Shown here: one piece after another, positions 1,242-31,689 of the stretch
Position numbering within the stretch: position 1 is the first letter of the stretch
Layout of the letters: the number at the start of each line of letters is the position of its first letter
Virus record (IMG/VR): IMGVR_UViG_2872152978_000008
Strand: one strand, 5' to 3'
Length of the DNA stretch: 34,309 nt
Origin: a virus
Taxonomy: Duplodnaviria; Heunggongvirae; Uroviricota; Caudoviricetes
Notes under the pieces: model-generated
Told to the model about the DNA's origin: nothing
The model's database searches: none
What the model saw: only the letters and a program-made list of their open reading frames with translations
Translations under genes and position numbers: made by a program

Positions 1242-1433
1242 TTATCGTGAGTTTTTAGTACAGATTTTTTTGGATTTACTAATAGTTCCATCATTGCAAA
1301 CAAATTTTCCATCGGAGGTACAGTGAGAGACACCTCCCTTTTTCCCAGAACAAGGATAATTTTTAGCATAGGTAGTTAGTGGGCTTAATAACAAAGAGCA
1401 TGATAAAACCACAAAAAATACTTTACCAAGCAT
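1242..1433 (-). CDS. Small secreted Cys-rich basic peptide, hypothetical (possible moron)
   Basis: 63-aa ORF with strong SD (GGGAGGA) 4-5 nt before ATG. N-terminal hydrophobic signal-like segment [23 protein letters not shown], then ~40-aa Lys-rich mature part with 4 Cys. Sits in an AT-rich stretch between repressor and integrase, same strand. Confidence 0.5.
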
Positions 1434-1448
1434 AGTATCCTCCCGGTA

Positions 1449-2024
1449 TTATCTAACATATTTAACTGTTAAACTTATAATTTTACCAATTATTTCAATG
1501 TCTTCTATCTTACAGTCGAAGGCTCTGTTTCCACCCTCGACGAAGATTCTTCCACCGGGTAAACGAGTAATGTCACGGATCGTTACTTCGCCATCAATAC
1601 TTATTACCCATTTACCATCACGTATGTCATCAAATTCTTTATCACAAATAAATTCAGAATTGTTATCTGTGATGACAAAAGGTTTTTTAAACGTAGAGGG
1701 TAGAAATCCCTTATCAAAAATATAAAAACCGTCTTCACGCAAGGCACCATCAGATAATACATATTTAGCAACTTCCATAGTATTTGTATTACCTGAAGTT
1801 TGCTTTGAACCATGTCCGGTTGTGAGCCAATTAAGCGAGGTGCCCGTTTCAAGGGCGCACTGGATTACCCATTCTGCTGGGAATGAGTCACGCATGTAGC
1901 GTGTGGCGAGTGTACTTTTAGAGATTCCTAAATGATCGCACAACGCCTGTCGAGTCTTGAATCCATAAGCTTCTACCATGCGCTCTATGGCGCCTCGTCC
2001 GCCTTTCTCCAAATTCATGGTCAC
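1449..2024 (-). CDS. CI-type prophage immunity repressor
   Basis: 191-aa ORF with N-terminal HTH-like segment (TRQALCDHLGISKSTLATRYMR) and a C-terminal domain. Position between int and a divergent Apl/cII pair matches 186-type immunity region layout. Confidence 0.7.
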   Translation of the reverse strand: MTMNLEKGGRGAIERMVEAYGFKTRQALCDHLGISKSTLATRYMRDSFPAEWVIQCALETGTSLNWLTTGHGSKQTSGNTNTMEVAKYVLSDGALREDGFYIFDKGFLPSTFKKPFVITDNNSEFICDKEFDDIRDGKWVISIDGEVTIRDITRLPGGRIFVEGGNRAFDCKIEDIEIIGKIISLTVKYVR

Positions 2025-2577: not shown

Positions 2578-2646
2578 AGTGGCACACTGAATTTGGCCAC
2601 CTGAACAGAGGTGATATGCTCACCTCAGAACAACACAGGTGCTCCA

Positions 2647-3815
<1,169 letters not shown>

Positions 3816-6055: not shown

Positions 6056-6457
6056 GTGGGAACCAAAGTGTCAGATATGCAGAAAAATGTGAATCCCGGC
6101 AGGCGAAAAGGCTGCCCTAATTATCCTCCCGAATTTAAACAGCAGCTCGTTGCTGCCTCCTGTGAACCCGGGATATCCATCTCAAAACTTGCTCTTGAAA
6201 ATGGCATTAACGCCAATCTGTTGTTCAAATGGCGACAACAATGGCGCGAGGGAAAGCTGCTATTACCTTCTTCAGAGAGCCCCCAGCTACTTCCTGTGAC
6301 TCTCGATGCAGCTGCCGAACAGCCAGAATCGCTCGCAGAGGATCCGGAAACCCTCAGTATCAGCTGTGAGGTAACGTTCCGGCACGGGACGCTCCGCTTC
6401 AATGGCAATGTCAGCGAAAAGCTCCTGACTCTGCTGATACAGGAACTGAAGCGATGA
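6056..6457 (+). CDS. IS66-family accessory protein TnpA (orf1)
   Basis: First of three co-oriented ORFs inside the IS; true start may be the internal Met at ~6077. Confidence 0.7.
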   Translation: MGTKVSDMQKNVNPGRRKGCPNYPPEFKQQLVAASCEPGISISKLALENGINANLLFKWRQQWREGKLLLPSSESPQLLPVTLDAAAEQPESLAEDPETLSISCEVTFRHGTLRFNGNVSEKLLTLLIQELKR

Positions 6458-6801
6458 TCCCGTTACCTTCCGGGACCAAAATTTGGCTGGTTGCCGGTAT
6501 CACCGATATGAGAAATGGCTTCAACGGCCTGGCGGCAAAGGTGCAGACGACGCTGAAAGACGATCCGATGTCAGGTCACGTTTTTATCTTCCGTGGGCGT
6601 AATGGCAGTCAGGTAAAGCTCCTCTGGTCTACCGGCGATGGACTGTGTCTGCTGACCAAACGGCTGGAGCGCGGCCGCTTCGCCTGGCCGTCAGCCCGGG
6701 ATGGCAAAGTGTTCCTCACACCGGCACAGCTGGCGATGCTCCTTGAAGGTATCGACTGGCGGCAGCCTAAAAGACTGCTTACGTCCCTGACTATGTTGTA
6801 A
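6454..6801 (+). CDS. IS66-family TnpB (orf2)
   Basis: 115-aa ORF overlapping orf1 stop by 4 nt (ATGA), typical IS66 tnpB arrangement. Confidence 0.75.
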   Translation: MIPLPSGTKIWLVAGITDMRNGFNGLAAKVQTTLKDDPMSGHVFIFRGRNGSQVKLLWSTGDGLCLLTKRLERGRFAWPSARDGKVFLTPAQLAMLLEGIDWRQPKRLLTSLTML

Positions 6802-6849
6802 GCCTCTTTATCCTGGTCGACGCTGAATGAGCCTGGTAATATACCCGGT

Positions 6850-8387
6850 ATGAGCAGCTCACTTCCTGACGATATCAATGCACTGAAACGTCTCCTTGCC
6901 GAACAGGAGGCGCTGAACCGTGCCCTGCTGGAAAAGCTGAACGAGCGTGAACGCGAAATAGACCATCTGCAGGCACAGCTGGATAAGCTGCGCCGGATGA
7001 ACTTCGGCAGCCGCTCCGAAAAAGTCTCCGTCGTATCGCACAGATGGAAGCTGACCTGAAGGCACTTCAGAAAGAAAGTGATACCCTTACCGGTCGGGTT
7101 GACGACCCGGCCGTGCAGCGCCCGCTGCGTCAAACCCGCACCCGCAAACCGTTCCCCGAATCACTCCCCCGCGATGAAAAACGGCTGCTGCCGGCAGCGT
7201 CATGCTGCCCGGAATGTGGAGGCTCACTGAGCTATCCGGGTGAGGATGCCGCCGAACAGCTGGAGTTGATGCGCAGCGTCTTCCGGGTTATCCGGACTGT
7301 ACGTGAAAAGCATGCCTGTACTCAGTGCGATGCCATCGTGCAGGCCCCCGCGCCTTCACGGCCCATCGAGCGGGGTATCGCAGGACCGGGGCTGCTGGCC
7401 CGCGTGCTGATCTCAAAGTATGCAGAGCACACCCCGCTGTACCGCCAGTCTGAAATGTACGGCCGCCAGGGCGTGGAGCTGAGTCGTTCACTGCTGTCGG
7501 GCTGGGTGGATGCATGCTGCCGGCTACTGTCACCGCTGGAAGAAGCGCTTCAGGATTATGTGCTGACTGACGGTAAGCTCCATGCTGATGACACGCCTGT
7601 CCCGGTGCTGTTGCCAGGCAATAAGAAAACGAAGACCGGGCGGTTATGGACCTACGTTCGTGACGACCGTAACGCCGGGTCAACGCTGGCGCCGGCGGTG
7701 TGGTTCGCTTACAGCCCGGACAGAAAAGGCATCCATCTGCAGACCCATCTTGCGGGGTTCAGTGGTGTACTGCAGGCGGATGCATACGCCGGGTTCAACG
7801 AGCTGTACCGGGATGGCCGGATAACGGAAGCCGCCTGTTGGGCTCACGCCCGCCGTAAAATCCACGATGTGCACGTTCGCACCCCGTCAGCCCTGACGGA
7901 GGAAGCGCTGAAACGGATCGGCGAACTGTACGCCATCGAGGCAGAGATAAGGGGAATGACGGCGGAGCAGCGCCTTGCCGAACGTCAGTTGAAAACGAAA
8001 CCGCTGCTGAAATCCCTGGAAAGCTGGCTGCGTGAAAAGATGAAAACCCTGTCGCGACACTCAGAACTGGCGAAAGCGTTCGCATACGCCCTGAACCAGT
8101 GGCCGGCGCTGACGTACTATGCAGATGATGGCTGGGCTGAGGCGGACAATAATATCGCTGAAAATGCGTTGCGGATGGTCAGTCTGGGCCGCAAAAACTA
8201 CCTGTTCTTCGGTTCGGATCATGGAGGAGAGCGGGGAGCGCTGCTGTACAGCCTGATCGGGACGTGCAAACTGAACGGAGTGGAGCCAGAAAGCTACCTC
8301 CGCTATGTACTTGACGTCATAGCCGACTGGCCGATAAACCGGGTCGGCGAACTGCTCCCCTGGCGCGTAGCACTGCCGACTGAATAA
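6850..8387 (+). pseudogene. IS66-family transposase TnpC carrying a frameshift near 7027-7035
   Basis: ORF 6850-7059 (MSSSLPDDINALKRLLAEQE...) and ORF 7044-8387 overlap in different frames. Adding one base in GTCTCCGTCGT restores a continuous reading ...[18 protein letters not shown].... Confidence 0.75.
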
Positions 8388-8424
8388 CACATCCCCGTCA
8401 ATACGGTTCTTGCTGCACGCTTAC

Positions 8425-9322
8425 CATTGACGGGCGTGGTCTGGCTGGCGAGATCAGCAAGGAAACGGGTAAATCCCTGCGTGATAACGCTGAATACGTT
8501 AATCCCTGGGCGTCTCTGCATCGTGTTCAGCAATTCCGCTTCTTTGGTATTCCAGGGCGTCAGGCTTACCGTGAACTGCGGTTGTTGGCTGGTCAGGCGG
8601 CAAGGCAGCAGGGTGACAAAAAAGCAGGTGCGCCGGTACTGGATAACCCGCGCCTTGATGCCATCCTGGCTGCTGCTGATGCTGGCTGTTTTGCCACCTA
8701 CATTATGAGGCAGGGCGGCGTGCTGGTTCCTCGCAAATATCACTTGATCAGAACCGCTTATGAAATCAATGAAGAGCCGACCGCCTATGGCGATCACGGT
8801 ATTCGTATTTATGGCATCTGGTCACCCATTGCAGAAGGCAAGATCTGCACTCATGCAGTGAAGTGGAAAATGGTTCGTAAAGCCGTTGACGTTCAGGAGG
8901 CGGCAGCCGACCAGGGCGCTTGCGCCCCTTGGACTCGTGGCAATAACTGTCCCCTTGCTGAAAATTTGAACCAACAGGAGAAAGATAAATCAGCTGATGG
9001 GAACCCCAGAACGGACATTACCAGCATGGATGACAAGGAGTTGCACGATTACCTGCACAGTATGAGCAAAAAAGAGCGCCGGGAACTGGCAGCAAGGTTA
9101 CGCCTGGTGAAACCGAAACGGCGTAAAGACTACAAACAGCGAATTACAGACCATCAGCGACTGCAGCTCGTGTATGAGCTGAAGTCCAGAGGATTTGATG
9201 GCAGCGAGAAAGAGGTCGATTTACTCCTTCGCGGAGGCAGTATTCCGTCAGGAGCAGGCCTGCGTATCTTCTATCGGAACCAGCGTTTGCAGGAAGATGA
9301 TCAGTGGCGGAACCTGTATTAA
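8425..9322 (+). pseudogene. A: Replication gene A, C-terminal part
   Basis: Same reading frame as 4460-5984 once the 2448-bp insertion (IS + duplication, a multiple of 3) is removed. Frame reads [31 protein letters not shown]... continuing into ORF 8582-9322. Confidence 0.8.
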
Positions 9323-9414
9323 TTACGCGGGTTAACAATTCGTGCTCTTAATAATACCAGGCATATCAGGCTGATGAACGTAAAAAAACGTTTTACATCA
9401 GTAAGATTATTATA

Positions 9415-9434
9415 TACTGTAAATATAAACAGTG
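9415..9434 (+). promoter_or_regulatory. LexA (SOS) box TACTGTAAATATAAACAGTG
   Basis: CTGT-N8-ACAG with AT-rich spacer, 42 bp upstream of the ATG at 9476, within AT-rich promoter-like sequence. Confidence 0.7.
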
Positions 9435-9475
9435 GTTATGCATGCAGTATTGCGTGTGGTGTCATAGGAGGAAAG

Positions 9476-9664
9476 ATGCAGGACTATTTTTTGGAGTCTT
9501 TGAAGCTCCAGCGCATTGATTTTTTTCTTAAGCTTGTAGCGGCTAGTGAGTGTAGTGATGAAGAGAAGGGGCTGGCTCTGCAGTGGGTTTCTGAATTGAC
9601 TGATGAACTCATGGCAAAAATCAGAACCCACGAATACAACCGCTCAATGGATGTCATCAGCTGA
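9476..9664 (+). CDS. Small SOS-regulated protein, hypothetical (possible Tum-like antirepressor)
   Basis: 62-aa ORF with AGGAGG SD 5 nt upstream and a LexA box in its promoter. The longer track ORF (from 9374) would place the LexA box inside the coding sequence. Confidence 0.5.
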   Translation: MQDYFLESLKLQRIDFFLKLVAASECSDEEKGLALQWVSELTDELMAKIRTHEYNRSMDVIS

Positions 9665-9674
9665 GGTGACTTTT

Positions 9675-9908
9675 ATGCGCATTGAAATAATGATCGATAA
9701 AGAGCAGAAGATTAGCCAGTCTACCCTGGACGCTCTTGAATCCGAGCTTTACCGCAATCTGCGCCCTCTGTATCCCAAAACGGTAATTCGTATCCGCAAA
9801 GGTAGCTCTAACGGTGTGGAACTTACCGGATTGCAACTGGACGAAGAAAGAAAACAAGTGATGAAAATTATGCAGAAGGTGTGGGAAGACGACAGCTGGC
9901 TGCATTAA
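9675..9908 (+). CDS. DinI-family protein
   Basis: MRIEIMIDKEQKISQSTLDALESELYRNLRPLYPK...VWEDDSWLH resembles E. coli DinI (MRIEVTIAK...WESADDWFVSE, recalled); GAGGTG SD upstream. Confidence 0.7.
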   Translation: MRIEIMIDKEQKISQSTLDALESELYRNLRPLYPKTVIRIRKGSSNGVELTGLQLDEERKQVMKIMQKVWEDDSWLH

Positions 9909-10043
9909 GAAACGTTGCTGGCGTCTGAACTAGCTTCTGGCGTCAGCAAGGTTGAACAACGAGCCCTTGCGAGGCGTTAGCTCTGTAGTGCATGTCTATG
10001 CCGCATGAGATCGCATGATCGTTTGAGGATCGTTTTTGCTAAG

Positions 10044-10068
10044 GCCCGCCAGAACTGGCGGGCTTTTG
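10044..10068 (+). terminator. Candidate rho-independent terminator after the SOS operon
   Basis: GC-rich hairpin GCCCGCCAG-AA-CTGGCGGGC followed by TTTTG. Confidence 0.55.
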
Positions 10069-10167
10069 CGTAGATCATGCAGGTGCATGAAAACCACTAC
10101 ATAAAGCGGGCAGGTAATGCTGCCAACTTACTGATTTAGTGTATGATGGTGATTTTAAGGTGCTTGC

Positions 10168-10443
10168 GTGGCTTCCATTTCCATCAGATGTCCTTCCTGC
10201 TCCGCTACTGAAGGCGTGGTGCGTAACGGCAAAAGCACTGCCGGACATCAGCGCTATCTCTGCTCTCATTGCCGTAAAACATGGCAACTACAGTTCACTT
10301 ACACCGCCTCTCAGCCCGGTACGCACCAGAAAATCATTGATATGGCCATGAATGGCGTCGGATGTCGCGCCAGTGCACGCATTATGGGCGTTGGCCTCAA
10401 CACGGTTTTACGTCACTTAAAAAACTCAGGCCGCAGTCGGTAA
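10168..10443 (+). CDS. insA: IS1 InsA
   Basis: [42 protein letters not shown]... is the canonical IS1 InsA. Confidence 0.9.
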
Positions 10444-10865
10444 CCTCGCGCATACAACCGGGCAGTGATGTGATTGTCTGCGCTGAAATGGACGAACAGT
10501 GGGGCTACGTCGGTGCTAAATCACGTCAGCGCTGGCTGTTTTACGCGTATGACAGGATACGGAGGACGGTTGTGGCGCACGTCTTCGGTGAACGCACTCT
10601 GACCACACTGGAGCGTCTTCTGAGCCTGCTGTCGGCCTTTGAGGTCGTGGTATGGATGACGGATGGCTGGCCGCTGTATGAATCACGCCTGAAGGGAAAG
10701 CTGCACGTTATCAGCAAGCGTTACACTCAGCGCATTGAGCGACATAATCTGAATCTGAGACAACATCTGGCAAGGCTGGGACGGAAGTCACTGTCGTTCT
10801 CAAAATCGGTGGAGCTGCATGACAAGGTCATCGGGCATTATCTGAACATAAAACACTATCAGTAA
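10362..10865 (+). CDS. insB: IS1 InsB (expressed as InsAB' by -1 frameshift)
   Basis: -1 frame relative to insA; canonical IS1 InsB sequence. Confidence 0.85.
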
Positions 10866-10889
10866 GTTGGAGTCATTACCAGCGGGCAG

Positions 10890-10976: not shown

Positions 10977-12626
10977 ATGTTAGTCAAGAAAAATAAAAAT
11001 TATAGTTTATATTTTTTAATTACAAATAATCAACAGATATCTGATTCTGGTAATTATATAAAAATAGTCCCATCAAGAAGCGATTGGAATGATTTTGGAT
11101 ATTTGAGTAGAGTCGAAATATCTATTTTTAATAAAAAAGAGTGTAAGGATATAATTTCACTGAATGGTTATATTGGTTTTTTGAATTCAGAGGAGGAACG
11201 AAATGGAAAAGCAGAACTGATAAGGCGAGTGAAAAAAAAGGAAGAATCTAATTTAAAGGATGAGGGGTTTAATGATTATTTTGTCATGCTTCAGGATATG
11301 AATAATTATCGAAGACTAGTAAGATTTTTTGGGGTGAATGAATCCAAATATATATTAAATTTCATTAATGATGTTGTTTCTAAGAAAAGTGACGCTAGTG
11401 CAGAGAATTTGAGGAAAAAAGCAATCTCTTCTGATATCTTTAATAAATCTTTCATTAGAGAGTCTGAGTCGTATTTTACTTTCAAAAATGCAGGAACAGT
11501 TCTTTCCGGTATTCAATATGAGGAGTTGGGTAATTTATCACAGCACATCAAGATTAGCTATTCGAATAAAGTTAATGAAGAAGATGTATCTTATGTTTTT
11601 AATTTTGATCACGAGCATGATTTACCAAAAAGAATTTCCATAATTATAGGCGAGAATGGTGTAGGAAAAAGCCAAACGCTTAGAGAAATCGCATTGGCTG
11701 CGATTAAAGGAAAGGATAATTTGGTGGCTGTAGTTGATTCTAACGGTGTGAGCATTGAAGAACGAATTCAAATTAGTAGGCTCATTGCTTTTTCTCCAAC
11801 AAATGAAAGTAAGTGTTCATTTCCAACCGATAAAAGAATAAAATCATTGATATGGTACAAAAGATTGACTTTAAATCGTGAATCAAAATCCAAATTAAAC
11901 TTGAATGATTTAATAGTGCAACTAGCGAGGAGTAACGACGCTATCGGCTATAATCAAAGGTGGAATATATTTGTTGATGCACTGAGTGTTCTAAATAGTA
12001 ACAACGATTTAGTAATCAAATGTGGCGGTGAAAATTCACCATTTGTTAAATTAAATGAGCTTAATTCTCGAGGCGAAGAATCTAGACTATCATTATATTC
12101 TGAAATTATTCTCTCTGGCGAGCCTTTGAGGCTTATTGAAAATAAATGTTACCCTTTGAGTAGTGGGGAAATATCGTTTATTAAGTTTTGTGTACAAGTC
12201 TGTTTGTATATTGAGAATGGGACTCTTCTATTAATAGATGAGCCAGAAACACATCTCCATCCTTCATTTATTAATAAATTTATGGCATTGCTTGATAATT
12301 TATTAGAAAAGACAGGCTCTTCAGCTATCATAGCAACGCATTCGGTTTATCTTGTTCGGGAGGTTTTTAAGGAGCAAGTGACAATACTCAGAAGACGAGA
12401 TGATGGGGTAATTGTTAGCGAAAAACCGAGATTGAGTACTTTTGGGGCGAATATAGGAAATATCTCATATTTTGTTTTCGGTGAGAGTGAACCAACTCAA
12501 ATTTTAAATAAAGTAAAAAACAATATAATTGCAAAGAATATGTCTTGGGATGATGTTGAATCTAAATATAGCGAGGACTTATCACTTAATGTATTAACTG
12601 CGTTGAGAAATGAAATGGGCAATTGA
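10977..12626 (+). CDS. ABC/AAA15-type ATPase with ~220-aa N-terminal extension (PtuA-like defence ATPase candidate)
   Basis: Walker A GENGVGKSQ (~aa 226), ABC signature-like LSSGE, Walker B LLLIDEPETHLHP, H-loop ATHS. GAGAGGG SD before ATG. Very AT-rich relative to the flanking prophage. Confidence 0.75.
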   Translation: MLVKKNKNYSLYFLITNNQQISDSGNYIKIVPSRSDWNDFGYLSRVEISIFNKKECKDIISLNGYIGFLNSEEERNGKAELIRRVKKKEESNLKDEGFNDYFVMLQDMNNYRRLVRFFGVNESKYILNFINDVVSKKSDASAENLRKKAISSDIFNKSFIRESESYFTFKNAGTVLSGIQYEELGNLSQHIKISYSNKVNEEDVSYVFNFDHEHDLPKRISIIIGENGVGKSQTLREIALAAIKGKDNLVAVVDSNGVSIEERIQISRLIAFSPTNESKCSFPTDKRIKSLIWYKRLTLNRESKSKLNLNDLIVQLARSNDAIGYNQRWNIFVDALSVLNSNNDLVIKCGGENSPFVKLNELNSRGEESRLSLYSEIILSGEPLRLIENKCYPLSSGEISFIKFCVQVCLYIENGTLLLIDEPETHLHPSFINKFMALLDNLLEKTGSSAIIATHSVYLVREVFKEQVTILRRRDDGVIVSEKPRLSTFGANIGNISYFVFGESEPTQILNKVKNNIIAKNMSWDDVESKYSEDLSLNVLTALRNEMGN

Positions 12627-13491
12627 AATGAATAAATTAAAAAGACCTGTTTTTAAAGATTATTCTGCATTTAAAAAACTATCTGCAAATAAGAGATTAA
12701 AACATCATTCTGTTCTGAATGGACAGGATACATTTATACTTAATGCATATAGATCGTACATAAAGAATAAAGGGTATCTTAATGTCAATTCTTGTGGCGT
12801 ATTGAGTAACAATATTGCTGAAGCTTTGAGATATTATTATAACAATCCCGCAAAGTGTTTATCTATAATTGATGATATAAGAGCAGCTAATTCTAACTCT
12901 CTATGTCCAATGTGTGGTTCAATGCATAGCGGGACTTTGGATCATGTTTTACCCAAGGAAAACTATCCAGAATTTTCTTTATTCACTAAGAATTTGGTTC
13001 CTGCTTGCAAATGTAATACTTTCAAAAGTACTACTATAGCTAATTCTGCAGGCCATCGGATGCTGCATCCATATTTTGATAATATATTAAAACAAAGATT
13101 AATATGTGCTAATTTTTCTAAATTAGGGCGAACACCTACAATTGATGTAAAAATCATAATTGACCCAATGTCACCAGAATATAACAATGTTAAGTATCAT
13201 CTTGATAATGTTGTTATCAAGAATAATATTAAGGGGTATTTGTCTGAACAATGGGAGTCGTTTTACTTATATCCTGAGCTTGTTATTAGAGGACTGAATA
13301 AGAGTCTTTCTACTTATAGCGATGTATATGAGTTGTTGACTCGCGAGTTGTTGCTGTTGGATGAAAAACATAAAGGTAAAAATAATTGGAATTCGGTTTT
13401 TGTAGCTGGGTTAATTCGACCTGATGTGATTAGGTGGATACTCTGTGAATTACATTTAGGTAACAGAAGTCCAGACGGTCGTCTCATATGA
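12610..13491 (+). CDS. HNH endonuclease (PtuB-like defence nuclease candidate)
   Basis: CPMCGSMHSGTLDHVLPKENYPEFSLFTKNLVPACKCNTFK carries the CxxC...DH...N...CxCN HNH/zinc-finger signature. Start overlaps the ATPase stop by 17 nt (alternative ATG at 12628), suggesting translational coupling. Confidence 0.75.
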   Translation: MKWAIEMNKLKRPVFKDYSAFKKLSANKRLKHHSVLNGQDTFILNAYRSYIKNKGYLNVNSCGVLSNNIAEALRYYYNNPAKCLSIIDDIRAANSNSLCPMCGSMHSGTLDHVLPKENYPEFSLFTKNLVPACKCNTFKSTTIANSAGHRMLHPYFDNILKQRLICANFSKLGRTPTIDVKIIIDPMSPEYNNVKYHLDNVVIKNNIKGYLSEQWESFYLYPELVIRGLNKSLSTYSDVYELLTRELLLLDEKHKGKNNWNSVFVAGLIRPDVIRWILCELHLGNRSPDGRLI

Positions 13492-13647: not shown

Positions 13648-14628
13648 AATTTATTTCCATCATTCTTTTTTGTAACGGTATTAACTCGTTACGTACAAAC
13701 ACCAGGCTCGCCTTCTCCACATCCCCAAACCCCCGACATTATTAGGCATAATCCCCATCATTTGCGGTGGCACACGATGCGCCGCCATCATGTCATCCCG
13801 GCTCACGTTCTTGATGTTCAGAAACTCATCCTTCGCCGCGACTTCTGACAACGGGATGATCTGAAGCCCGTCCTTTTTGCCGTTAGGCGAGTACATAAAC
13901 AGATTGCGGAAGTTACCTGGTCCTTTGGCGCTTTTCATCGCATTGCGGAGGTTGTTCACATCCTCCTGGTTTTGCGCGGCATCGGTCATGTACATGATGA
14001 AGCCTGCATGACTGCCGTTAATGTAATACTATCGGCGGAACAGCGTGGCGGACTCGTTGAGCAGGGCTGACGGAATGGCAGAAAGGTAACCTGGCAGGCC
14101 GTAGATCTCTTGGTTGATGTCCGGTTCCATCAGATGAAAGATGCTTCCTTTCGTGAACTGATACGGCTGCGTGGTCATGCCGTATTGCACAAACCAGTAG
14201 GTATCCAGGTCTAATCCGCGTCGGGTGTATTTTGCCAGAGCAGGCTCAAGAGCGATGACCTCTCCGAACCGGTTTGTGCGTTTCTCCAGGTAAGCGTTAC
14301 CAAATACCAGATAATCCTGCACAAAACGTGAAAAAGCCTGCTGGCTGAGCAGCGGGTGAGGGATGTAGGTACTGATCAGAATGTTGCATTTCACCGCAAT
14401 TGGTGAACTGTGATGCACGGCGGCGCGGAAGGTGCGCGCCAGTCCGTCAAAACTCACTGGCGGCTCATACCAGCGATCTGTCTGTACGCATTCCACATAG
14501 TCCAGTAGTTCACGGCGGTCCAGAACCGGAACGGGATCGCCGAAGCTGAATGCTTCGGCTGAAGTCTGGTTTTTATGCTGGGTCTGTTTCGTCGCCGCAG
14601 CGCGGTTCTTCTTACTCTTTCCCATCAA
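13648..14628 (-). pseudogene. Q: Portal protein gpQ with in-frame TAG (14029-14031) and a probable 1-bp deletion near 13727-13729
   Basis: ORFs 14029-14628 and 13681-13995 share a frame: ...ATLFRR*YYINGSHAGFIMYMTD.... Downstream the frame decays to GGLGMWRRRAWCLYVTS*, while adding one T restores a protein-like GGFGDVEKASLVFVRNELIPLQ... continuation to ~13648. Confidence 0.8.
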
Positions 14629-21884: not shown

Positions 21885-22278
21885 ATTGCAGAAGGTGGAC
21901 GACTGGCTGAGTGCATTATTGGCGAATCTGGAGCCAGCCGCAAGAAGCCGCATGATGCGCCAGCTGGCGCAGGAACTGCGCCGGACACAGCAGCAGAACA
22001 TCAGGATGCAGCGCAATCCAGATGGCAGCAGTTATGAGCCGCGCAGGGTAACAGCACGCAGCAAAAAGGGGCGCATCAAACGTCAGATGTTTACAAAGCT
22101 GCGCACCACAAAATACCTGAAAACTGCAGCCAGCGCCGATTCTGCCAGCGTACAGTTTGAAGGTAGGGTGCAGCGCATTGCCCGTATTCACCATTACGGC
22201 TTGAGTGATCGCGTCAGTCGAAAAGGTATTTATACCATCTATGCGAAAAGGCAGTTATTAGGTTTTAATGTCCGGTAA
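21877..22278 (+). pseudogene. S: Tail completion protein gpS, 3'-truncated by IS1
   Basis: ORF runs into the IS1 left end and stops on a TAA inside the IS1 terminus (...RQLLGFNVR*). Confidence 0.7.
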
Positions 22279-22328
22279 TGCTGCCAACTTACTGATTTAG
22301 TGTATGATGGTGATTTTAAGGTGCTTGC

Positions 22329-22604
22329 GTGGCTTCCATTTCCATCAGATGTCCTTCCTGCTCCGCTACTGAAGGCGTGGTGCGTAACGGCAAAAGCACT
22401 GCCGGACATCAGCGCTATCTCTGCTCTCATTGCCGTAAAACATGGCAACTACAGTTCACTTACACCGCCTCTCAGCCCGGTACGCACCAGAAAATCATTG
22501 ATATGGCCATGAATGGCGTCGGATGTCGCGCCAGTGCACGCATTATGGGCGTTGGCCTCAACACGGTTTTACGTCACTTAAAAAACTCAGGCCGCAGTCG
22601 GTAA
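22329..22604 (+). CDS. insA: IS1 InsA (copy 2)
   Basis: Identical translation to copy 1 InsA. Confidence 0.9.
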
Positions 22605-23026
22605 CCTCGCGCATACAACCGGGCAGTGATGTGATTGTCTGCGCTGAAATGGACGAACAGTGGGGCTACGTCGGTGCTAAATCACGTCAGCGCTGGCTGT
22701 TTTACGCGTATGACAGGATACGGAGGACGGTTGTGGCGCACGTCTTCGGTGAACGCACTCTGGCCACACTGGAGCGTCTTCTGAGCCTGCTGTCGGCCTT
22801 TGAGGTCGTGGTATGGATGACGGATGGCTGGCCGCTGTATGAATCACGCCTGAAGGGAAAGCTGCACGTTATCAGCAAGCGTTACACTCAGCGCATTGAG
22901 CGACATAATCTGAATCTGAGACAACATCTGGCAAGGCTGGGACGGAAGTCACTGTCGTTCTCAAAATCGGTGGAGCTGCATGACAAGGTCATCGGGCATT
23001 ATCTGAACATAAAACACTATCAGTAA
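22523..23026 (+). CDS. insB: IS1 InsB (copy 2)
   Basis: As copy 1, with a T-to-A substitution (TLTTLERL to TLATLERL). Confidence 0.85.
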
Positions 23027-23036
23027 GTTGGCAGCA

Positions 23037-23519
23037 TTACCATGCAGCCCTCACAATATAGTTAAAAGCGACATTTCGTGGGCGTGTTTCATTCGCACCT
23101 GCAGGTTTAGTCGTTGCCGCAACAACACCACCCTCTGTAATAGCCGGGTTGGGAATTGGGTAATTATCGAAGTCAATGGCCGGAGACAGGGGCGTGATTT
23201 GTTTTAAAATCGTGGTGCCTGTAAAACTTTCCAGAGTCTGGTCGTTAGTTCGTGAAGTCCAGATTCCCCAATAGTGGTTATGACTGACAATCGCACCGTC
23301 CTGAAGCGTTAATAATCCCCTTCCGTTATCCACTCCACGTCCGTCATCCCAGCCACGAATAAACTCACCGCGTAAATCAGGCAATTTATTTGTCGGGTAA
23401 GCCTTTGCCAGTTCCGGGTATTCTTCAGCAGAAAAAGCCGCACCATTGCATTTCAGCCAGCCTGTCGGCGGAGTGGCTGAAGGCCACGGAACAGGCACAC
23501 CAACAGGTAATGCAGAGCC
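23037..23519 (-). pseudogene. Orphan tail-fibre variable C-terminal segment, clipped by IS1
   Basis: ...GWLKCNGAAFSAEEYPELAKAYP...NVAFNYIVRAAW is a typical tail-fibre C-terminal variable domain. It has no constant N-terminal part, lies inverted next to an invertase, and its 3' end runs into IS1. Confidence 0.6.
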
Positions 23520-31454: not shown

Positions 31455-31534
31455 CGCTGCCGCCATTTTGTCGCCATCGTTAAAAAACAGTGCTTCTAAC
31501 ATCATGATTTTAAAAGGCATAAATTTCAGACAAC

Positions 31535-31577
31535 AAAAAACCCATCAACCTTGAACCGAAATGGCGGGGTTGATGGG
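31535..31577 (-). terminator. Candidate rho-independent terminator downstream of ybjL
   Basis: Perfect 10-bp stem CCCATCAACC/GGTTGATGGG with a 17-nt loop, followed on the minus strand by U6. Confidence 0.45.
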
Positions 31578-31689
31578 CTCCACAAAATGGGGACATCAAA
31601 GAAAAGCAGTGGCACTAATTAAGACTGATGCCCTGCGGAAAAGTTCTGCGGTTGTGCAAAAAAATTTCATTTTCAGGGCAACTTCAGTT

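Follow-up and report, generated by a model that had tools for sequence, protein, structure and literature searches.

A probable LexA-controlled antirepressor operon of the split tum type in a defective 186-like prophage

The window analysed here, that is, the whole stretch of DNA of 34,309 nucleotides, contains a defective P2/186-like (Peduoviridae) prophage, in which a LexA (SOS) box within a promoter, a 62-aa open reading frame (ORF), a DinI-like gene and an intrinsic terminator follow one another just downstream of replication gene A, in the same order as in Fels-2, DuoHS, PSP3 and 186. A preliminary description of this DNA, read from the sequence without tools, had placed the operon next to gene A; the operon does adjoin that gene, but only a 3' fragment of it is left there, the gene being interrupted at about 6056-8400 by an IS66-family element. 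Coordinates of the features are collected in Table 1.

Table 1. Positions of the operon features, of related elements in the window and of similar ORFs in two comparison loci
Feature	Position	Strand	Basis or remark
186-type CI immunity repressor	1449-2024	-	Pfam Phage_CI_repr E 2.8e-33, Phage_CI_C E 2.7e-29
3' fragment of replication gene A	8582-9322	+	phrog_14885 E 2.4e-172; phrog_91 'nicking at origin of replication'; ORF map
-35 hexamer TTTACA, p95-like SOS promoter	9392-9397	+	read from sequence; predicted
LexA (SOS) box TACTGTAAATATAAACAGTG	9415-9434	+	unique in window, 17/20 to consensus; conserved upstream of small ORF
Likely -10 TACTGT (first six bases of LexA box)	9415-9420	+	17 bp after -35
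Possible second LexA box CAGTGGTTATGCATGCAGTA, degenerate	9430-9449	+	13/20 to consensus by hand count
Shine-Dalgarno AGGAGG of 62-aa ORF	9466-9471	+	read from sequence
tumA-type gene, predicted antirepressor, 62 aa	9476-9664	+	ATG 9476, TGA 9662-9664; phrog_698, profile homology to 186 Tum
dinI-like gene (tumB type), 77 aa	9675-9908	+	Pfam PF06183, phrog_189, 186 Tum C-half
Stem-loop without U tail, just after dinI-like gene	9911-9953	+	RNA fold; position of 186 partial terminator t95a
Intrinsic terminator hairpin	10041-10068	+	11-bp G+C-rich stem 10041-10066, GAAC loop, UUUUG tail; RNA fold
TumA-like ORFs in ESSI-2-type loci	L006 1501-1668; L007 1501-1713		comparison loci

The agreement of the box with the E. 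coli LexA consensus TACTGTATATATATACAGTA extends over 17 of 20 positions, and when the whole 34-kb window was scanned with up to three mismatches allowed, this was the single match; the same scan on dinucleotide-preserving shuffles gave a match in none of 100. Its core CTGTAAATATAAACAG (9417-9432) is the sole CTGT-N8-ACAG palindrome in the 34-kb window, has an A/T-rich spacer and lies inside the promoter, and by these sequence characters it is an E. coli-type LexA box, at which binding of LexA is predicted. We also checked the corresponding position in other genomes, and each of the nine loci compared, those of the distant ESSI-2, PSP3 and 186 among them, had a CTGT-N8-ACAG box upstream of the small ORF. 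The near-consensus box that had been proposed from the letters of the sequence is thus confirmed.

The promoter itself was established by comparison with the annotated operon of phage 186, in which the LexA site contributes its first six bases as the -10 element of p95, exactly as in the layout found here. A generic promoter scan did not call it, because its -10 matches at only 3 of 6 positions. The -35 hexamer is conserved in Fels-2, DuoHS, SopEphi and Yersinia MLG42, and the AT-rich, promoter-like region noticed earlier can now be described more exactly as a p95-like promoter, TTTACA-17 bp-TACTGT, that overlaps the box.

A possible second LexA box, degenerate in sequence, overlaps the first box by 4 nt. 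In the corresponding sequences of the relatives (CAGTGGTTATATGTACAGTA in Fels-2 and CAGTGGTTATATATACAGTA in SopEphi) the right half is good and the left core reads GTG, not CTG; the sequence in the window carries two substitutions with respect to these relatives, one of them within ACAG. The distance from the first box to the start codon is 41-47 nt in the Fels-2 group (41 nt here) and 18-23 nt in 186, PSP3 and ESSI-2, and the candidate second box accounts for the distance that is greater by about 21 nt than in 186 and PSP3. One possibility is that phages of the Fels-2 group might set an induction threshold by means of two overlapping LexA boxes, of which the second is weakened here.

The 62-aa ORF with a strong Shine-Dalgarno sequence, which the preliminary description had also pointed out, is indeed present, and it is the orthologue of STM2728 of Fels-2 and of tum (ECHS_RS04495) of the prophage DuoHS in E. 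coli HS. Against the PHROG profiles its product gave phrog_698 (E 3.6e-38) and also phrog_8554 and phrog_1993, and the N-terminal 69 residues of the 186 Tum protein match the same three families in the same columns, phrog_1993 at 1.9e-23, phrog_8554 at 3.2e-12 and phrog_698 at 6.4e-6. When an alignment of 27 diverse family members, obtained by an exhaustive search of representative sequences, was compared with 186 Tum by hhalign, residues 3-45 were aligned to residues 3-45 with a probability of 94.9% and an E-value of 4.7e-8. That exhaustive search had collected 66 relatives at E <= 0.001, all of them short stand-alone proteins and none a fused protein of Tum length, and the link of the family to the fused Tum rests on profile comparisons for this reason. 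The small protein is therefore homologous, by profiles, to the N-terminal, non-DinI half of 186 Tum; pairwise BLASTP gave no alignment of it with either 186 Tum or PSP3 TumA, and the match of the family profile to PSP3 TumA alone was weak (probability 7%).

Within the family the core of residues 1-47 is conserved and the tail is variable, and the AlphaFold model of the protein is a two-helix hairpin (pLDDT 85.6). A Pfam search assigned no family to the protein, and a sequence search of the PDB with the family profile found nothing. The ratio dN/dS calculated against the SopEphi and Yersinia orthologues was 0.06-0.09, and the ORF is therefore under strong purifying selection. Absence of conservation of the small ORF among related prophages had been named beforehand as an outcome that would refute the proposal; what we found is a family widespread in Enterobacterales and maintained under the selection just mentioned. 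Cronobacter phage ESSI-2 and Escherichia phage ESSI2_ev015 have a TumA-like ORF, 41-49% identical, behind a LexA box and carry no DinI-like gene beside it.

RefSeq and almost all phage records call the 62-aa gene 'hypothetical protein', PHROG 698 is of 'unknown function', and in the ESSI-2 record the TumA-like ORF is wholly unannotated. A few records use the label 'levan regulatory (domain) protein', which we set aside as an unsupported propagated name.

The start codon of the DinI-like gene lies 10 nt past the stop codon of the small ORF. Its 77-aa product matches the Pfam family DinI (PF06183) with an E-value of 6.6e-23 and 81.3 bits, the gathering cut-off being 24.2, over residues 14-76, by which the entire model is covered; it also matches phrog_189 (E 1.5e-29) and the DinI structure 1GHH in the PDB (E 2.7e-6). 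With residues 71-145 of 186 Tum it shares 41% identity (E 3e-24), so that it is both a member of the DinI family, as the preliminary description had assigned it, and the counterpart of the DinI-like downstream half of the Tum module.

Downstream of this gene, RNA folding of the region 9905-10075 gave a z-score of -3.2, and the G+C-rich terminator noted there in the earlier reading was located as an 11-bp stem followed by TTTTG. A simple terminator scan of the region did not call it, because its tail has only four T. The same hairpin is conserved in Fels-2, where it follows orf97, and in phage 813R9, where it follows the dinI-like gene. The additional stem-loop just after the dinI-like gene is a putative counterpart of the partial terminator t95a, judging from its position in 186. 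An Rfam search detected no RNA family in the operon region, and the operon lacks the orf97 homologue located behind the DinI gene in 186 and Fels-2.

The same element carries a cognate 186-type CI repressor, and its gene is intact. The protein is 95% identical to CI of DuoHS and 31% identical to CI of 186, and it is the presumed target of the antirepressor. Between int and cI there is in addition a 63-aa ORF (1242-1433, minus strand) with a signal-peptide-like N-terminus, several cysteines and no Pfam family, and DuoHS has an ORF of the same size (ECHS_RS23290) at this position.

Other parts of the prophage have decayed. Besides the IS66-family element in gene A, an IS3-family element (2611-3815) cuts cII, and the genes from there as far as the 5' part of dam have been lost; the portal (Q) gene (14029-14628, minus strand) is seemingly truncated, with 199 aa as compared with about 341-346 aa in DuoHS and Fels-2. 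An IS1 copy lies just after the terminator (10113-10880) and an identical direct copy at 22274-23040, 12,161 bp apart, and the segment that they enclose could be deleted through them. With gene A, cII, dam and portal broken by IS elements or deletions, the prophage is defective and incapable of replication or packaging, and its SOS switch is probably orphaned; because the prophage is broken, the switch can do no more than lift the repression of a dead prophage or work in trans.

The P2 tin/old hotspot, situated after the SOS operon and before the portal gene, carries a two-gene cargo of low GC content (30-35%) at 10977-13491, whose first gene encodes an AAA_21/PtuA-like ATPase of 549 aa and whose second gene encodes a 293-aa partner; the pair matches PDC-M01A/B, a candidate defence system in PADLOC (E 3.2e-55 and 1.2e-33), and is related to Septu. 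At the right border of the prophage, beside ybjL, the gene for the small RNA RybB was found at 31532-31610 on the minus strand (Rfam RF00110, 105 bits), and with these two genes the window ends.

Genetic information on this type of operon is available from DuoHS, the P2-like prophage of E. coli HS studied in the Phollow paper (PMC12055606). In that study an in-frame deletion of tum (ECHS_RS04495) abolished lysis induced by mitomycin C, and a lexA(Ind-) background had the same effect (PMC12055606). ECHS_RS04495 is a 189-nt 'hypothetical protein' gene located between gene A and the DinI-like gene, and its product is identical to the 62-aa protein of the window at 61 of 62 residues, the difference being T51S; by this orthology the small ORF corresponds to a gene that is genetically needed for SOS induction. 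NHR24 and NHR28, the published primers for the deletion, align perfectly to the window at 9456-9478 and 9662-9684, which are the borders of the 62-aa ORF, and according to these primers the deletion joins the start and stop codons of tum and leaves the ribosome-binding site of the DinI-like gene intact (PMC12055606). It is formally possible that the deletion may have acted through the downstream DinI-like gene. Induction of transcription by DNA damage in a LexA-dependent manner is suggested, for the operon in the window, by the box together with the lexA(Ind-) phenotype of DuoHS, whose promoter is identical.

From the features of the sequence, the homology to the two halves of Tum, the near-identity to tum of DuoHS and the presence of an intact cognate CI, all observed here, we consider it very probable that the operon represents the SOS operon, with tum in the split arrangement, of a Fels-2/DuoHS-type (186-like, Peduoviridae) prophage. 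In an undamaged cell, LexA would sit on the box, over the -10 of the p95-like promoter, and keep the operon off; upon DNA damage, RecA would become active, LexA would cleave itself and the promoter would fire. The 62-aa protein, a two-helix antirepressor of the TumA type, would then bind the non-cleavable 186-type CI and so free the lytic promoter, the physical binding of the two proteins being expected by analogy with 186 Tum, for which it has been shown. The 77-aa TumB-type protein would modulate the activity of the RecA filament and thereby tune the SOS signal, a role suggested by its family membership and by what the 186 record says of truncated Tum products, and transcription would end at the terminator hairpin. 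The preliminary description had guessed that the 62-aa protein could be a compact antirepressor, and this guess gains support from the homology to the N-terminal half of Tum, the match of the DinI-like ORF to the C-terminal half, the published split tum and the phenotype of the DuoHS deletion.

If the small ORF encoded an unrelated protein, or merely a leader with no antirepressor activity, the operon would be only a host-directed modulator of the SOS response, that is, a DinI 'moron'. Only the DinI-like gene belongs to a curated family, while the 62-aa protein has no Pfam family, bears the PHROG label of unknown function and is hypothetical in the records, and the module has stayed intact in a defective prophage, as such a reading would allow. 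Profile homology to the antirepressor half of 186 Tum and strong purifying selection on the small ORF are not what it predicts, however; deletion of the 61/62-identical orthologue abolishes induction of DuoHS, and phages of the ESSI-2 type keep the small ORF behind a LexA box in the absence of DinI, and we therefore think this reading very unlikely. Those ESSI-2-type loci would point to the small protein as the essential effector, and they speak equally against the converse idea, that the antirepressor proper is the DinI-like protein and that the small ORF does no more than aid its expression, for example by translational coupling. Coupling is conceivable across the 10 nt that separate the small-ORF stop codon from the DinI-like start, and among the Tum products of 186 are DinI-sized ones that 'modulate SOS induction'; yet the 186 record credits only full-length Tum with inhibition of CI and treats the DinI-only products as modulators, the DuoHS deletion spares the ribosome-binding site of the DinI-like gene, and for PSP3 the activity is reported, as a second-hand statement in PMC3121763, to reside in the upstream gene. 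Considering these points together, an antirepressor function of the DinI-like protein seems to us extremely unlikely.

Whether the split tum operon still does anything in this strain is a separate matter, and the chances appear to us about evenly balanced that the module is a non-functional relic, which decay has just not reached and which has no consequence in the cell. The disruption of gene A, cII, dam and portal, the two IS1 copies flanking a large segment and the two substitutions in the possible second LexA box would fit a relic, whereas promoter, box, the two ORFs, terminator and CI have each remained intact, and the differences from the functional DuoHS copy amount to one amino acid of TumA and 5% of CI. 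This question concerns present use and not identity, and a relic is compatible with the main explanation. Uses other than self-induction can also be considered, such as a trans-inducer of co-resident prophages of the Fels-2/DuoHS type, comparable to the cross-talk of Gifsy antirepressors, or an SOS switch by which Apl is derepressed and the element is cut out along with its PDC-M01 cargo, and, as a related idea, the threshold set by two boxes; we regard such additional service as unlikely.

The operon is thus correctly described and ordinary, a known DNA-damage switch, because the split tum module has already been described in Fels-2 and PSP3. The reading as a 186-like SOS operon is supported, with the two additions that the arrangement is not new and that the prophage is defective; the only novelty that may remain lies in a possible use, such as one in trans, of a switch that has stayed intact within a dead prophage, and in a possible role of the second, degenerate box. 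A LexA-controlled antirepressor operon was correctly recognised by a reading made without tools, and little was added otherwise. The practical importance lies in annotation: genetics has defined the 62-aa gene as tum of a widespread group of prophages, yet it is 'hypothetical' in databases, and linking phrog_698 to Tum would improve predictions of prophage inducibility.

A region of 751 bp containing the module is 96.7-98.7% identical to Fels-2 and to several Peduoviridae of E. coli and Klebsiella, and the module is present in 1146 of 5426 complete E. coli genomes, or about a fifth. The resemblance to DuoHS is especially close, since the order of A, tum and dinI-like gene is the same, the promoter and LexA box are identical and both prophages occupy the same chromosomal site, next to ybjL and rybB. 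They differ in that DuoHS is intact and inducible whereas the prophage in the window is broken by IS3-family, IS66-family and IS1 insertions, in the cargo after the operon (the PDC-M01 pair here, hypothetical genes in DuoHS), and in the two substitutions just downstream of the LexA box in the window. In Fels-2 of Salmonella Typhimurium LT2, STM2728 is a hypothetical protein of 62 aa, identical to ours at 61 of 62 residues, and STM2726.1 is annotated as 'DinI family, similar to TumB of PsP3'; at the DNA level the identity is 96.7%, the LexA box is the same, and a 732-bp orf97 homologue (STM2726), which the window does not have, is inserted between the DinI gene and the terminator. The lethality of a lexA null mutation in Salmonella has been attributed to Fels-2 (Bunny 2002, as cited elsewhere), and a term search in the text of a paper on the Salmonella SOS regulon (PMC8072944, strain 14028) turned up no Fels-2 locus.

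In PSP3, a LexA box, a small ORF (60 aa) and a DinI-like ORF likewise lie downstream of gene A, and in the record tumA carries the note 'similar to 5' end 186 tum; UV induction of prophage', with tumB entered as a gene of its own; PSP3 TumA is only about 22% identical to the protein of the window, and the box is 20 nt from the start codon instead of 41 nt. Phage 186 has the LexA-controlled promoter with the box over the -10, and the halves of its Tum are homologous to the two proteins of the window, but they are fused there into one protein of 146 aa, internal starts yield DinI-sized products, and orf97 follows; the record states that full-length Tum 'inhibits CI DNA binding' and that the truncated products 'modulate SOS induction'. 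According to a published summary, 186 Tum binds CI and keeps it off the operator (Shearwin et al. 1998, summarised in PMC3121763). Lemire et al. (2011, PMC3121763) pointed out that 186 Tum resembles an antirepressor fused to DinI and that Fels-2 and PSP3 carry tum split in two, the upstream TumA being the antirepressor and the downstream TumB a DinI homologue; the antirepressor activity of the upstream gene in PSP3 is quoted there second-hand, as a personal communication. The antirepressors GfoA, GftA and FsoA of the Gifsy and Fels-1 prophages described in the same study resemble the present system in that a small LexA-controlled antirepressor is combined with a DinI homologue and directed to non-cleavable repressors, but in those operons dinI comes first, the prophages are lambdoid, and the antirepressor and repressor families are, by their description, unrelated to those of the window (Lemire et al. 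2011, PMC3121763).
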